This document shows positions 2,727 through 41,494 of a DNA stretch of 64,000 nucleotides, piece after piece. Within the stretch, counting starts at the first letter, position 1. The number at the start of each line of letters is the position of its first letter. A program made the position numbers and the translations under genes. The stretch comes from a bacterium (lineage in GTDB: Bacteria; Patescibacteriota; Minisyncoccia; Phycocordibacterales; Zambryskibacteraceae). The stretch is from the NCBI GenBank assembly GCA_023266935.1, contig JAHFOF010000002.1, positions 4,469 to 68,468 on the forward strand. Direction: 5' to 3'. The notes beneath the pieces were generated by a model that was given only the letters and a program-made list of their open reading frames with translations, was not told the DNA's origin and did not search any database.

Positions 2727-4265
2727 ATGAGTTTAACTTTATCTAAAACTGATTTTATTTCATATAGAGAGTGTGCGAAAAATGTCTGGGTCAAATGGCA
2801 CAAACCTGGTATATATAGCAATTTTCCTATTTCTGACTTTGAAAGATCTCTCGGAGAGATGGGAAATGAGGTAGAAAAACTGGCTCAAGGAATGTTTTCT
2901 GAAGGAATCTTGATAAAAGGTAGAGGACCAGAGGCTCAAAGAAAAACAAAAAAAATAATCAAGGAGGAGACACCGGCTATTTTTCAAGCCGTGTTTGAGA
3001 CAACCAAATATCTTGCTGCGACTGATGTTTTAAAGTGGAACAACGAAAATAAATCTTATGATTTGTATGAAATCAAAATGTCCTCAACAGAAGAAAGTGA
3101 CACAAATGGAGAAAAGAAAATAAACAAAAAGAAAGAAGAGCAGTATGAATACGACCTAGCTTTTCAAACCAATGTGGTTGAAAAAAGTGGAATTAAATTA
3201 AATAAAAAATATTTGGTTAGATTGAACAAGGATTATGTCCGCATGGGCGAGCTTGATTTTAATGAAGGTGCTTTGTTTATTATCGAAGATAAAACTGAAA
3301 CCGTAGATAATATCCGCAGTGAAGTAGAAAATGAGATGGAGGATGCCTATGAATATTTATCCAAAGAGAGAGAGCCTGTTGGACCTTGTTCTTGTTTTTA
3401 TAAGGGTCGTTCAGCACATTGCACCACCTTCTCGTACAATAACCAAACGATGAATGTTCCAGAATATAGTGTCCATGATTTGAACAGGATCGGTCAAAGT
3501 AAAAAATACCTCACAGAATTACTCGATTCAGGGATTTTACATATCAAGGATGTACCTATAGACGATCGATTAAAAAACAAAAAACTTAATCAGGTATTGG
3601 TTCATAAATCTGGCAAACCGATAATCAATGGGGAAACTCTCAAAGAAGAATTAGATCAATTAACTTTTCCTCTATATTTTCTCGACTACGAGACATACCC
3701 AACTGCCATTCCTCCATTCAGTGGATATAAGCCGTATCAACATATTGTTTTTCAATATTCTCTTCATGTTTTAGAATCCGCTGATTCTGTGCCCCAACAT
3801 TATGAATGCCTAATTTTGGATGGAGATCCAGCTGAAAGGATTGCCGAGAGTTTGCATAAAAATATTGGTAATAAAGGCAGTCTCATCTCTTGGTATGCAA
3901 CATTTGAAAACTCTAGAAATAAAGAGTTGGGCAGAATGTTACCTCAATACAAAAAGTTTTTTGATGATTTAATCGCCCGAACATATGACCTAATGAAAAT
4001 CGTCGAAGACCAACATTATGTTCACCCAGATTTCCACGGTCGTTCATCCATAAAAAAAGTTTTGCCCGCATTGATAAAAGATTTGTCTTATAAGACCTTA
4101 GAAATACAAAGCGGAACTGAAGCTATAGAGGCCTATAAACAAATCACCACTGGAGAACTCAAAGAAAAAGAAGTAGATAAAAAAAGAAAAGAGATGCTCG
4201 AATATTGCAAACTCGATACAGAAGCAATGCTTCGTTTGTGGAGATTTTTTAAAGGTTTGGTTTAA
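2727..4265 (+). CDS. DUF2779-like nuclease. It combines an N-terminal PD-(D/E)xK/Cas4-like module with a Cys cluster and a C-terminal DEDDy 3'-5' exonuclease domain.
   Basis: The N-terminus SKTDFISYRECAKNVW resembles DUF2779/RecB-like starts, and a Cys cluster PCSCFYKGRSAHC follows. The C-terminal half carries Exo I LDYET and Exo III YCKLDTEAMLRLW. Confidence 0.5.
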   Translation: MSLTLSKTDFISYRECAKNVWVKWHKPGIYSNFPISDFERSLGEMGNEVEKLAQGMFSEGILIKGRGPEAQRKTKKIIKEETPAIFQAVFETTKYLAATDVLKWNNENKSYDLYEIKMSSTEESDTNGEKKINKKKEEQYEYDLAFQTNVVEKSGIKLNKKYLVRLNKDYVRMGELDFNEGALFIIEDKTETVDNIRSEVENEMEDAYEYLSKEREPVGPCSCFYKGRSAHCTTFSYNNQTMNVPEYSVHDLNRIGQSKKYLTELLDSGILHIKDVPIDDRLKNKKLNQVLVHKSGKPIINGETLKEELDQLTFPLYFLDYETYPTAIPPFSGYKPYQHIVFQYSLHVLESADSVPQHYECLILDGDPAERIAESLHKNIGNKGSLISWYATFENSRNKELGRMLPQYKKFFDDLIARTYDLMKIVEDQHYVHPDFHGRSSIKKVLPALIKDLSYKTLEIQSGTEAIEAYKQITTGELKEKEVDKKRKEMLEYCKLDTEAMLRLWRFFKGLV

Positions 4266-4270
4266 CTCTT

Positions 4271-4299
4271 GACTTTATTATCTTATTATGCTAATATAT
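4271..4299 (+). promoter_or_regulatory. Sigma70-type promoter TTGACT-17-TAATAT upstream of the small ORF
   Basis: -35 TTGACT, a 17-nt spacer and -10 TAATAT, about 40 nt upstream of AGGAG-N7-ATG. Confidence 0.5.
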
Positions 4300-4341
4300 A
4301 AGTAGTCAAACACACTGTCTTTCTTCTTCAGGAGAACACTG

Positions 4342-4521
4342 ATGTGGCACTGGATCTTTACCCATCTGACGTATCACCAGTTCGTGTTTGTTTGCGTTTA
4401 CCTCGTGGTCATGACGTTCGTGCTTAGGCACAAGATGCTCGCTGATCGACGACTCCGGATGCTGGGCGAGGTGCCTCGCGAGATTGGTGAGGTTTTTCAT
4501 TGGGACGATCACAGAGCGTAG
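4342..4521 (+). CDS. Small His/Trp-rich membrane protein, 59 aa (MWHWIFTHLTYHQFVFVCVYLVVMTFVL...), GC-enriched; below the track's 60-aa cutoff
   Basis: Consensus promoter, SD AGGAG 7 nt upstream, one predicted TM helix, and a perfect intrinsic terminator immediately downstream. Local GC (~55%) is well above the flanks. Confidence 0.45.
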   Translation: MWHWIFTHLTYHQFVFVCVYLVVMTFVLRHKMLADRRLRMLGEVPREIGEVFHWDDHRA

Positions 4522-4540
4522 TCCCAAGCTCGAAGACAAA

Positions 4541-4580
4541 AAGGGCGGGTCCAAACAGATCCGCCCTTTCTTCTATTTTT
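4541..4580. terminator. Bidirectional intrinsic terminator (stem AAGGGCGG/CCGCCCTT, 12-nt loop, T-run). It serves the small ORF on the plus strand and rpoD on the minus strand.
   Basis: A perfect 8-bp GC stem read directly. It is followed by TCTTCTATTTTT on the plus strand and a T-run on the minus strand, 2 nt from the rpoD stop. Confidence 0.6.
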
Positions 4581-5808
4581 AATATCCTCTCAACCTATTT
4601 ATTTTGTCGTGTTGACGAATTTTTTCATGAGCTTTAGCTTCGATTTGTCTAATACGTTCTCGAGTGACACCAAAAACTTTACCCACTTCTTCGAGGGTGT
4701 GAGTATATCCATCTGTCAATCCGTGTCTCATTTCTAGAATTTTTCTTTCTTTCGGAGGAAGGTCATTTAAGATTTCTTTCACTTGATCTTGAATAATCCG
4801 ACGCGATGATTCCATGTCTGGAGAAATAATTTTATCATCTGCGAGGAAATCCCCAAGTTTGGATTTTCCATCATCTCCATCATCTCCCACGGGGCTTTCG
4901 AGCGACACAGTCGATTGGTCTATCTTTTCAATTTGATACACTTTCTCAACATCAAGGTTCATTTCAAGCGCTACTTCTTCAGCCAAAGGTTCCCGACCGA
5001 GGTCTTGGGTTAACCTGCGCACAACTTGTTTATATTTAGCAATCGTTTCTACCATGTGCACTGGTACACGAATCGTTCGAGATTGATCCGCGAGAGCACG
5101 AGTAATGGCTTGCCTTATCCACCATGTGGCATAAGTAGAAAATTTGTAACCCTTGGTCCAATCAAACTTATCGACTGCCTTAAACAACCCAAGATTCCCT
5201 TCTTGGATAAGATCGAGGAGAGTAAGATCTGGACTTCGATTCGCATATTTCTTGGCTATAGAAACTACCAAACGCAAGTTCGCCTTGGCCAATAGATTTT
5301 TCGCTTCTTCATCACCTTGTTCAATTCTTTTGGCTAATTCTTTCTCCATAGAACCTGGGATAAGTGGGTATTGCCCGATTTCTTTCAAATACATCTGAAT
5401 AGAATCATAAGCCGAGTCAGATTTGTTATATGAATACTTTTTACCAGTTTCTTCAACAGGCATTTCAAGTAATCCCCCTCCCTCGAGGATATCTATCCCC
5501 AGAGCATTCAAACGTTCATACAACTCATCCAAAAAGATGATGTTGAGCTCAATATTCGGAAATTCTTTTAAAATTTCATCATAAGTAACAAAACCTTTAT
5601 CCTTGCCTCTTTTAACCAAACGTTCAACTTTAATCAGTTCGTCTGTGGATTTTTTAGTAACTTTGGCTCTGATTGGTTTAATTATTTTCTTAGAAACTTT
5701 TTTATTTATCTTTTTTGAAACCTTCTTTCTTGAAACGGGCTTTCTCTTGGCTACTTTTTTAGAGTTGGCCTTGTGCCCTTTATTTTTTTGTTTTTTAGTT
5801 TTCTTCAT
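4579..5808 (-). CDS. rpoD: RNA polymerase sigma-70 factor RpoD with a Lys-rich N-terminal extension
   Basis: Regions 2-4 are recognisable ([16 protein letters not shown], region 4 [22 protein letters not shown]). Confidence 0.9.
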
Positions 5809-40460: not shown

Positions 40461-40983
40461 CGTAGTCATGTAGACCTACGGGGGTTGAATGTATTGCACC
40501 TCCCAGATTCGCACGACTCTTTCCATATGTGACTAAAGTCGGTCATCTTGGTGCTATGGGTCTTCCAGAACTCTCCGAGGAGAGATGATTTAAATCGATT
40601 TGCAGTATTCATGCAGTGACTATTCAATCCTCTTGTCACTACACTACACCCGCAAACCTAAAAAACCGCCAGTGGCCTAGTAGGTACCAAGTTTGAGAAC
40701 TACCTGAACTCTCAAACTTATGAGGATTTACCTACTGCTCGAATTACGAGGGTTTATTCTTCACTCTCCGAAGAGAGATTGGAATCTCGCTCCCAAAACC
40801 AATATATACAACTTAGTTATGAGAGCCTTGGAATCCGGAATGTTCACGGTCGACCTTGGATGGTTGCGTGGTCTCGGCTAGACTAGTTTCACCTCATGCC
40901 ACGCATTCCATCGAGCCAGATCATGTAACTCCATTCAGTGATTCTAATACTCGTTCTGTTTCTAGCCTAGCATAACAAATCAT
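40461..40983. ncRNA. Candidate structured ncRNA, unit 1 (~520 nt, unique sequence, no credible ORF). Strand is uncertain, with the minus strand favoured.
   Basis: It is bounded by repeat modules A and B. It has many long perfect stems (e.g. AAGTTTGAGA..TCTCAAACTT, CTCGAATTACGAG). On the minus strand it shows two copies of a CTCTC-(T/C)TCG-GAGAG hairpin, one with a canonical cUUCGg tetraloop. GC is higher than in neighbouring CDS. Confidence 0.4.
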
Positions 40984-41058
40984 AAATGTCAAGCAAATTA
41001 TCATTTCATATTGCTTAATAGTCAAAAAACAGCTCTATTGAGCTGTTTTTTGGGAGCT
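40984..41058. repeat. Direct repeat module B, copy 1 (~75 bp). It has a conserved 30-nt segment AATGTCAAGCAAATTATCATTTCATATTG followed by a bidirectional intrinsic terminator at 41024..41051.
   Basis: About 85% identical to 41408..41480. The hairpin CAGCTC-TATT-GAGCTG is flanked by an A6 run and a T6 run. On the minus strand the module ends with TTGACA (a -35-like hexamer) preceded by an AT-rich UP-like tract. Confidence 0.65.
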
Positions 41059-41081
41059 AATTTAGAATAGTGAGCCCCTGT

Positions 41082-41110
41082 CTTGTCATAATTTTTATAA
41101 AAAGAAAACC
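41082..41110. repeat. Direct repeat module A, copy 2
   Basis: CTTGTCATAATTTTTATAAAAAGAAAACC, matching 40432..40459. Confidence 0.7.
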
Positions 41111-41407
41111 GCAGTCGTTTGACTGGGTTGTTTGATACCCGGAGGCACCTGGCCTCTCAAGCTGAATCTTGAGGCCAGATGTCTGCGGGTTGTTCTACGG
41201 CGCGCCGGCGGAGTGCTTACTCGCCGCGTGCGGCCGTCGAGAACGTCGCCGTGTGCACGTGAGCCAATTCGTACATGGACCTGCTGTTCTGGGTGCCATC
41301 GCGGACCCTGTGCATGTTGCCTCTCGACGTTGAGGGTAGAAGAGCATGTCGGTCACATAGGGAGCGTCCCTTGACCTGACCTTTTTATCGTAGCACAGTA
41401 TAAAAAT
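41111..41407. ncRNA. Candidate structured ncRNA, unit 2 (~295 nt, ~60% GC in a ~37% GC genome). Strand is uncertain, with the minus strand favoured.
   Basis: Very GC-rich with extensive helices (CTGGCCTCTCAAG..CTTGAGGCCAG, CGTCGAGAGG..CTCTCGACG, CGGCG..CGCCG). The only ORF (41132..41374) is Arg/Cys-rich, which looks like a composition artefact. On the minus strand TTGACA-17-TACGAT lies ~7 nt before the first G of GGTCAGGTC. Confidence 0.4.
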
Positions 41408-41480
41408 AATGTCAAGCGAATTATCATTTCATATTGTATAGTTACCAAAAAACAGCCCTGTTGAGCTGTTTTTTGAAAGC
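41408..41480. repeat. Direct repeat module B, copy 2, with an intrinsic terminator at ~41446..41476
   Basis: AATGTCAAGCGAATTATCATTTCATATTG followed by AAAAAACAGCCCTGTTGAGCTGTTTTTT (hairpin with one mismatch, A-run and T-run). Confidence 0.65.
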
Positions 41481-41494
41481 TGATTTTAATTTTG

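Follow-up and report, generated by a model that had tools for sequence, protein, structure and literature searches.

What kind of gene, if any, occupies the GC-rich segment between a nuclease gene and rpoD in a member of the Zambryskibacteraceae (Patescibacteriota; assembly GCA_023266935.1)? The segment lies at positions 4266–4580 of a 64,000-nt stretch of contig JAHFOF010000002.1, referred to here as the window. An initial annotation had read it as a mini-gene for a peptide with a single transmembrane (TM) segment, leaving a promoter-to-terminator small RNA (sRNA) as the alternative. Comparison with related loci suggests that the segment is probably a genuine, unannotated small-protein gene. 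The encoded peptide would belong to an undescribed, fast-diverging family of single-TM peptides, and its gene would occupy a variable slot between a DUF2779 gene and rpoD.

The gene in question is a 59-codon open reading frame (ORF) on the plus strand (4342–4521), with a translation identical to the one first quoted. Judged by sequence, homology and AlphaFold2 (AF2), its product is predicted to be a small bitopic membrane protein. The peptide begins with an interfacial segment, WHWIFTHLTYHQF, followed by a TM helix at about residues 12–28, over which the 17-residue Kyte–Doolittle mean reaches 2.17, and by a C-terminal tail. Lysine and arginine residues number seven on the C-terminal side of the helix and zero on the N-terminal side. 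Run without an alignment, AF2 returned one helix spanning residues 2–54, with a predicted local distance difference test score (pLDDT) of 96–98 over residues 1–30. The positive-inside rule is an established basis for topology prediction; thus, on account of the K/R-rich C-terminal flank, the peptide would be inserted in a single pass with its N-terminus out and its C-terminus in.

Relatives of this peptide were reached through gene order. Looked up as exact sequences, the DUF2779 and rpoD proteins of the window itself were not on record. A protein search with rpoD identified at least 80 related loci at 69–90% identity in metagenome-assembled genomes of Parcubacteria/Paceibacteria, many of them labelled Zambryskibacteria. 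The GC-rich segment was absent from the loci listed, all from GTDB genomes, by blastn, tblastn and nhmmer, although closer genomes may exist. The tblastn search proposed at the outset thus gave no peptide match in these loci, and in plasmid and phage collections it gave none, or a match at E = 0.7; a DNA search of the same collections detected no similarity. Synteny was more productive. A DUF2779 protein search was followed by comparison of the contigs of the closest relatives, in which the order hisS-like, exonuclease, PAP2, DsbA and DUF2779, then convergent rpoD–dnaG–rpoC, is kept. Through this route, related ORFs of 48–73 residues emerged in four syntenic loci, and one further database protein, P0122, is also related. 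L087 and L092 come from the Hainich groundwater samples ERZ1292632. At the aligned ATG, the ORFs encode 60 residues in L087/L089, 50 in L088 and 48 in L092, and a 73-residue ORF in L091 is identical to the database protein P0121.

The members share an N-terminal pattern, HW(I/V)(L/F)-x3-5-(Y)xQF, one TM helix, a K/R-rich C-terminal flank and, often, a terminal W(D/S). Their N-termini are alike, reading MWHWIFTHLTYHQFVF... in the window, MWNWILVHMHDPDYQVVF... in L088, MLNWILAHFHDP... in L092 and MFGNITHWILSHSYQQFINF... in L087, and the 73-residue ORF of L091 carries GHWVLNDMTKLQFIM. All five members for which DNA is available encode one TM segment (17-residue Kyte–Doolittle mean 1.8–2.6) and a C-terminal flank with 4–7 K/R, and the N-terminal flank is free of K/R in four of the five. 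Therefore, the proposal of a mini-gene for a single-TM peptide is borne out in the homologous loci, where frame, TM segment and charge asymmetry are all kept. The description of the peptide as His/Trp-rich is accurate for this allele, but across the family only one His, one Trp and a QF pair recur.

Statistical comparison points the same way. P0122 (...GHWVLNDMTYAQFFAICFV...IGKLLLWD), recovered by a profile search with five sequences, aligns with residues 3–55 of the window peptide, including the C-terminal IGxxxxWD, at a Smith–Waterman score of 66 (z = 10.5; none of 5000 shuffles as good). The corresponding z-scores of the window peptide are 6.8 with L091, 6.2 with L087, 4.2 with L088 and 3.4 with L092. 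When a profile was built without the window peptide, the window ORF was the best non-training match among 21,563 six-frame segments (E = 5e-5), the next match being at E = 0.14.

A coding signature is seen in the closest pair, L088 and L092, which align over 48 ungapped codons with 60% nucleotide identity and 23/48 amino-acid identity. Their summed BLOSUM62 score is 129 in the sense frame versus at most 61 in the other five frames, four of which contain stops. The Ka/Ks check advocated in the initial annotation gave a nonsynonymous rate (dN) of 0.43 and a synonymous rate (dS) of 1.72, i.e., dN/dS of about 0.25. The proportion of nonsynonymous differences (pN) is lower than that of synonymous differences (pS) in 10 of 10 pairs, with the pairs that include the window peptide near saturation (pN 0.44–0.52, pS 0.65–0.86). 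As an illustration, the conserved isoleucine is written ATC, ATT, ATA and ATT in the four loci. An ORF of this length from a fixed ATG survives in 3–11% of shuffles per locus, and multiplying over five loci gives approximately 2e-6, or about 2e-5 when the closest pair is treated as one. By a condition set in advance, the peptide was to be abandoned if homologous loci had lost the reading frame; the frame proved to be kept, and the DNA sequence and the other five frames were not. We conclude that the plus-strand ORF should be a protein-coding gene.

An antisense ORF of 82 residues had also been pointed out at 4306–4554 on the minus strand. This ORF is present, but no Pfam match, no entry in the protein collection and no promoter or Shine–Dalgarno (SD) sequence in that orientation was found for it. 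In the L088/L092 comparison, antisense frames score at most 56 versus 129 for the sense frame and contain stops. The ORF is best read as a shadow of a sense gene rich in G and C at third codon positions (GC3), because GC3-rich sense codons avoid TTA, CTA and TCA and thereby leave the complementary frame open.

The base composition of the segment bears on two further explanations. The estimate of about 55% GC holds, with 150-nt windows at 0.53–0.57 over the ORF and a peak of 0.567 versus a window mean of 0.402 (standard deviation 0.057; about 2.9 standard deviations), but the island is not unique, as three others within the window equal or exceed it. The rise starts at the ORF rather than in the promoter or the 5' untranslated region (5'UTR), and GC amounts to 0.61, 0.31 and 0.68 at codon positions 1, 2 and 3, respectively. 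A non-coding or dual-function sRNA of about 275 nt, extending from promoter to terminator and owing its GC to structure, with the ORF incidental, would account for the fact that gene callers passed over the ORF, and non-coding RNAs in AT-rich genomes are classically recognised by such GC-rich islands with a promoter and terminator of their own. The concentration of GC at codon positions 3 and 1, and conservation that tracks the protein frame rather than the nucleotides, speak against it. The Rfam scan called for at the outset offered no help to the RNA: an E-value scan of 4000–4900 against Rfam 15 gave weak matches only, all far below gathering scores, and of the six matches, five fall on the minus-strand terminator hairpin, where they match terminator parts of the models. 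Beyond such look-alikes, no Rfam family appeared at E ≤ 1. Over the whole window, a scan at gathering thresholds returned a single tRNA, and ARAGORN found no tmRNA at the mini-gene. Fold z-scores are −1.85 on the plus strand and −0.87 on the minus strand, and RNAalifold on four homologues yielded a consensus over 289 alignment columns worth only −5.6 kcal/mol, in which the body contains no supported helix. An sRNA reading is accordingly highly improbable.

A second possibility is that the segment is functionless debris, i.e., GC-richer foreign DNA, such as a piece of a leucine-rich repeat (LRR) gene, that came to lie behind a resident promoter with an ORF open by chance. In support, its GC3 equals that of an IS110-like transposase gene in the window, ORFs this long occur in 8% of shuffles, and the slot is empty in close relatives. 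Moreover, residues 35–58 (window 4444–4515), the tail DRRLRMLGEVPREIGEVFHWDDHR, resemble an LRR unit, DLRNNQLGEVPAEIGQLTNLHWLDLR, of the 706-residue repeat protein P0123 when aligned as DRRLRMLGEVPREIGEV--FHWDDHR (14/24 identities, raw score 60). The E-value of this LRR match stems from summing four repeated stretches, and by calculation a search space of 2.4e11 residues should yield a single stretch of this strength, about 28 bits, tens of thousands of times. Because the search space is vast and the score is inflated by repeats, the resemblance, striking by eye, was judged to be chance. Debris would also not be expected to share its N-terminal motif, TM segment, charge pattern and C-terminal IGxxxxWD with peptides of other genomes, and the segment is bordered by neither a target-site duplication nor terminal inverted repeats. 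This explanation is therefore considered very unlikely.

Several observations weigh against a small-protein gene and were considered alongside the evidence above. Gene callers left the ORF uncalled in the source record as well as in L087, L088 and L092, as they did the 82-residue antisense ORF. In GC-rich DNA, an ORF as long as this is no rarity, and the antisense frames are also open. The window peptide alone is unmatched in a collection of 5.8 billion proteins searched with a word index and in JGI metagenome and viral contigs searched with 8-mer patterns. Both methods are blind to relatives at 30% identity, and synteny was thus needed to find them. Viral contigs searched with patterns from P0122 likewise gave no match, the family alignment being too diverged for profile-based patterns. 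An exhaustive phmmer search of 1.84 billion representatives produced only two matches, an LRR protein and a tandem-repeat artefact; both were rejected as repeat-inflated. With only four training sequences, the profile E-value of the window ORF weakens to 0.026, and leave-one-out searches fail to retrieve L087 or L088 significantly. Finally, the family has only six members, all short and 18–38% identical to the window peptide, and it rests partly on slot position. Taken together with the conserved frame, these points leave a genuine small-protein gene as the probable reading.

The signals around the ORF are consistent with an independently expressed gene. The upstream neighbour, at 2727–4265 on the plus strand, encodes a DUF2779 protein of 512 residues (Pfam PF11074, E = 1.6e-37). 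DUF2779 proteins are predicted exonucleases that are Cas4-like plus RNase H-like (PMC3985635, PMC13621843). Three nucleotides separate the stop codon of the gene from the −35 box of a sigma-70-type promoter (4269–4297, plus strand), where the hexamers first proposed were recovered by sequence reading and by a promoter scan: TTGACT at 4269–4274 and TAATAT at 4292–4297, 17 nt apart, with a TGc extension at 4289–4291 and 9/12 consensus matches. Transcription would start at about 4304. Seven promoter-like sites occur within 1.2 kb versus 2.4 ± 1.7 expected, and such a match by itself is weak evidence for a gene. Its conservation adds to this: the pattern TTGACT-N14-TGc-TAnnnT occupies one fixed position behind the DUF2779 stop in the window, L087, L088, L092 and L081, and the 73-residue gene of L091, which comes after an extra peptide gene, is separately promoted.

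The 5'UTR (4304–4341, plus strand) contains a CU-rich tract (4319–4329), followed by the SD sequence AGGAG (4330–4334), which is separated by 7 nt from the ATG at 4342, exactly as had been proposed. The tract and the SD sequence can pair in a 6-bp hairpin (UUCUUC/GGAGAA) that is present in the minimum free energy and centroid folds alike, and this pairing could temper translation. The CU-rich 5'UTR aligns across related loci, and the motif CTTC-GGA(G)A is kept in L087, L088 and L092. Overall, four related loci have the promoter, the CU-rich 5'UTR and the start codon in matching positions.

At the other end, a bidirectional intrinsic terminator (4540–4579, both strands; hairpin 4540–4569) is common to the mini-gene and convergent rpoD. 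The stem is longer than the perfect 8-bp GC stem first described: it consists of 12 pairs (seven G-C and one G-T; 92% complementary) and closes a 6-nt loop. On the plus strand, the T-rich tail CTTCTATTTT follows the hairpin, and an A-run at 4535–4539 on its 5' side is TTTTT on the minus strand, so the element reads as a terminator on both strands. Its suggested service to rpoD is thereby upheld. The rpoD gene itself (409 residues; 4579–5808, minus strand) has its stop codon at 4579–4581 and is followed by dnaG and rpoC; Pfam sigma-70 domains were found in the syntenic rpoD genes of relatives. On the basis of these signals, the small-protein gene would be transcribed from its own TG-extended sigma-70-type promoter abutting the DUF2779 stop, translated from AGGAG-N7-ATG and terminated at the shared hairpin. 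A second terminator-like hairpin of seven pairs lies within the ORF (4473–4493; GCCTCGCGAGATTGGTGAGGT then TTTTCATTGG) and could be either a coincidence or a site of premature termination.

The content of the slot was compared among relatives whose DUF2779 proteins are 65–79% identical, taking the span from the DUF2779 stop to the rpoD stop. The slot is empty in five loci (L084–86, L110 and L111), holding the terminator only or 40–90 nt. In L081 (5608–6009), L082 and L090 it holds a 133-residue ORF, and in L083 (5533–5946) an unrelated 137-residue ORF with a GC3 of 0.70. Peptides of the family occur alone or in company. The 48-residue peptide of L092 stands alone, and the 50-residue peptide of L088 is accompanied by a 128-residue homologue of the 133-residue ORF (2352–2738). 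In L091, a 51-residue TM peptide precedes the separately promoted 73-residue peptide. In L087/L089, the 60-residue peptide is overlapped by a second TM peptide of 56 residues (L087 2499–2669), and the ATG/stop overlap in L087, ATGCCTGA, suggests that the two may be translationally coupled. None of the alternative cargo examined (L081, L083, L087 and L088) has a Pfam, PADLOC or PHROGs assignment. By this comparison, the product would be a 59-residue member of a rapidly diverging family of 48–73-residue peptides, and its gene would be dispensable accessory cargo that is exchanged or absent among close relatives.

The composition of this cargo is often at odds with its host. The GC3 of 46 long host ORFs in the window is 0.35 ± 0.065, roughly half that of the mini-gene, and the sole other outlier is the IS110-like transposase gene at 0.68. 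Peptide GC3 exceeds that of the adjacent nuclease gene in L087 (0.78 vs. 0.43) and L091 (0.77 vs. 0.50), and in L088 (0.54) and L092 (0.44) it is close to that of the host. Locus GC in the clade spans 0.29–0.60, so that GC-rich donors are available among its own members. The excess could reflect recombination via the conserved flanks, in which GC-richer Paceibacteria donors replaced the cargo; alternatively, a recombination hot spot may have undergone GC-biased gene conversion, a process described for bacteria. A search for flanking repeats over 4150–4700 revealed no terminal inverted repeats, target-site duplication or attC-like repeats; the neighbours are DUF2779 and rpoD, no recombinase is adjacent, and the IS110-like gene is 43 kb away.

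A more specific proposal can be put forward, although we consider it unlikely: the DUF2779–rpoD junction of Zambryskibacteria-like Paceibacteria may be a dedicated hot spot of cassette exchange. In such a scheme, a resident promoter would drive swapped GC3-rich genes, mostly for small membrane proteins, and the DUF2779 nuclease might assist the exchange. The peptides would determine, strain by strain, how these episymbiotic bacteria interact with hosts or phages, and the window peptide would be one allele.

Other observations concern the two flanking genes. A small co-directional TM ORF of 48–114 residues, often with its own promoter, directly follows DUF2779 in 8 of 15 JGI/ENA loci (L089, L091, L092, L093, L097, L098, L102 and L106). 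This may reflect a functional pairing or just the high density of such ORFs there; because such ORFs are common and the slot is often empty, the linkage is only a hint. In L113–L115 (4184–6077; DUF2779 65% identical), genes with Fic/RhuM and Bro-N domains follow instead of rpoD, which suggests that mobile or defence-type cargo can also adjoin DUF2779. On the other side, convergent small TM ORFs of 51–112 residues lie within about 300 nt after the rpoD stop in the more distant Paceibacteria L003, L005, L007, L011, L041 and L043. Their GC3 is 0.58–0.78 versus a locus GC of 0.43–0.53, and by sequence they bear no relation to the window peptide. In this clade, the region 3' of rpoD thus looks like a general variable site.

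Two of the other compositionally unusual regions of the window deserve mention. The first is an intergenic segment upstream of prfA (40959–41486) with a GC-rich core of about 320 nt (about 41064–41381; GC up to 0.65). A 105-nt direct repeat (40959–41063 and 41382–41486; 78% identical) borders the core on either side, and each copy carries a terminator-like hairpin. The core folds with z-scores of −3.7 and −3.6 on the two strands (0/200 shuffles as good). Its only Rfam matches at E ≤ 1 are a terminator look-alike and one weak hit, and its sole ORF, of 80 residues, is implausible. It is a candidate for an undescribed structured RNA or a small mobile insertion beside a terminator. The second region (47581–48880) contains the IS110-like gene (47695–48789, minus strand), whose 364-residue product matches the Transposase_20 domain of the IS116/IS110/IS902 family (E = 1.4e-6). 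With a GC of 0.58 and the GC3 given above, this ORF is compositionally foreign in a 40%-GC genome, and no Rfam RNA was found in its flanks. Neither the 41-kb island nor the IS110-like gene has sequence similarity to the mini-gene.

What might the peptide do? The initial annotation had likened it to small membrane toxins or regulatory peptides, and this likeness extends to size and shape but to no toxin, defence or phage family. For the window peptide, Pfam-A, which includes models for Hok/Gef, Ldr, Fst and TisB, gave zero families at E ≤ 1, PADLOC gave zero matches, and the best PHROGs match reached only E = 0.03, to a family without known function. PDB sequences gave no meaningful match to it either, and Pfam, PADLOC, PHROGs and PDB sequences likewise gave none for its relatives or for the alternative cargo ORFs. 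A holin or other small phage membrane protein found no backing, with core genes as flanks, no phage gene context and no match in PHROGs or phage genomes. An anti-sigma factor was also considered and rejected, given that the gene is convergent with rpoD, hence not co-transcribed with it, and that the slot is empty in close relatives. As a best guess, the membrane itself or a larger membrane protein would be the target of the TM helix. The gene is dispensable, varies between strains, diverges fast and is accompanied by other small TM peptides; for these reasons, a role in conflict or interaction (exclusion, immunity or toxin-like) seems, with low confidence, somewhat likelier than that of a housekeeping regulator.

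A concrete version of such a role is a toxin of the type I toxin–antitoxin kind, in which the peptide would depolarise or permeabilise the membrane and be restrained by an antisense RNA or by mRNA structure. Its length of 59 residues, single TM helix and charged tail fit this idea, as does the place of a dispensable, strain-variable gene in a hot spot. The SD sequence, furthermore, is sequestrable by the upstream CU tract, and two promoter-like sites with 9/12 matches exist on the minus strand (4321→4293 and 4309→4280). Those sites, however, are directed away from the mRNA, as their −10 elements precede its inferred start, and L087, L088 and L092 do not keep their hexamers, although a consensus scan could miss a weak promoter. 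The mRNA, at the z-score of −1.85 reported above, is not unusually structured, and the near-consensus TG-extended promoter and good SD sequence point to constitutive expression, and an unguarded toxin would seldom be expressed in this way. Together with the lack of a Pfam toxin family, PADLOC or PHROGs match at a meaningful E-value, these features make a type I toxin rather unlikely.

The small-protein gene thus amounts to a well-supported annotation correction rather than a mechanistic discovery, and it overturns nothing. Annotation of Candidate Phyla Radiation genomes systematically overlooks small membrane proteins, and here gene callers skipped one in the source record as well as in three related contigs. 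The correction brings in a small protein family that had not been recognised before; familiar in kind, its members fall into no described family. It also documents a variable slot beside a housekeeping sigma-factor gene, with cargo richer in GC3 than the core genome; this pattern may help to study recombination or GC-biased gene conversion and the flux of accessory genes in unculturable organisms.

The only detectable relatives of the window peptide are P0121 and P0122, 73-residue JGI "hypothetical proteins", and the ORFs of L087/L089, L088 and L092. None is named or placed in a Pfam family. P0122 is encoded on a JGI contig of 3,541 nt. Those with DNA lie directly downstream of a DUF2779 gene, like the window peptide. 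The 73-residue forms differ from it by a 13-residue N-terminal extension, and the L088 and L092 forms are without the long tail.

Among characterised systems, the E. coli proteins MgrB, AcrZ, MgtS, KdpF and CydX are small membrane proteins that modulate larger membrane proteins. The window peptide is like them in having fewer than about 75 residues and a single TM helix, and in that their genes are often unannotated and sometimes stand alone with their own promoter and terminator. It shows no sequence similarity to them by Pfam and has no adjacent or co-conserved partner gene. Unlike most of them, it is dispensable and hypervariable between close relatives. With type I toxins (Hok/Gef, TisB, Fst/Ldr, Ibs and ShoB), it shares the form of a small hydrophobic single-TM peptide with a charged end, encoded as strain-variable cargo. 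It differs from them in lacking a family match and a conserved antisense promoter over the mRNA, and in a promoter and SD sequence that look constitutive. The locus as a whole recalls integron cassettes and phage "moron" genes, in which a fixed resident promoter by a conserved gene serves interchangeable, compositionally foreign, terminator-ended small genes. In contrast to these, the slot lacks an integrase, attC-like repeats, terminal inverted repeats and a target-site duplication; phage genes are not found nearby, and phage and viral collections gave no match. Ordinary homologous recombination via the core genes on either side would suffice to explain the exchange of its cargo.

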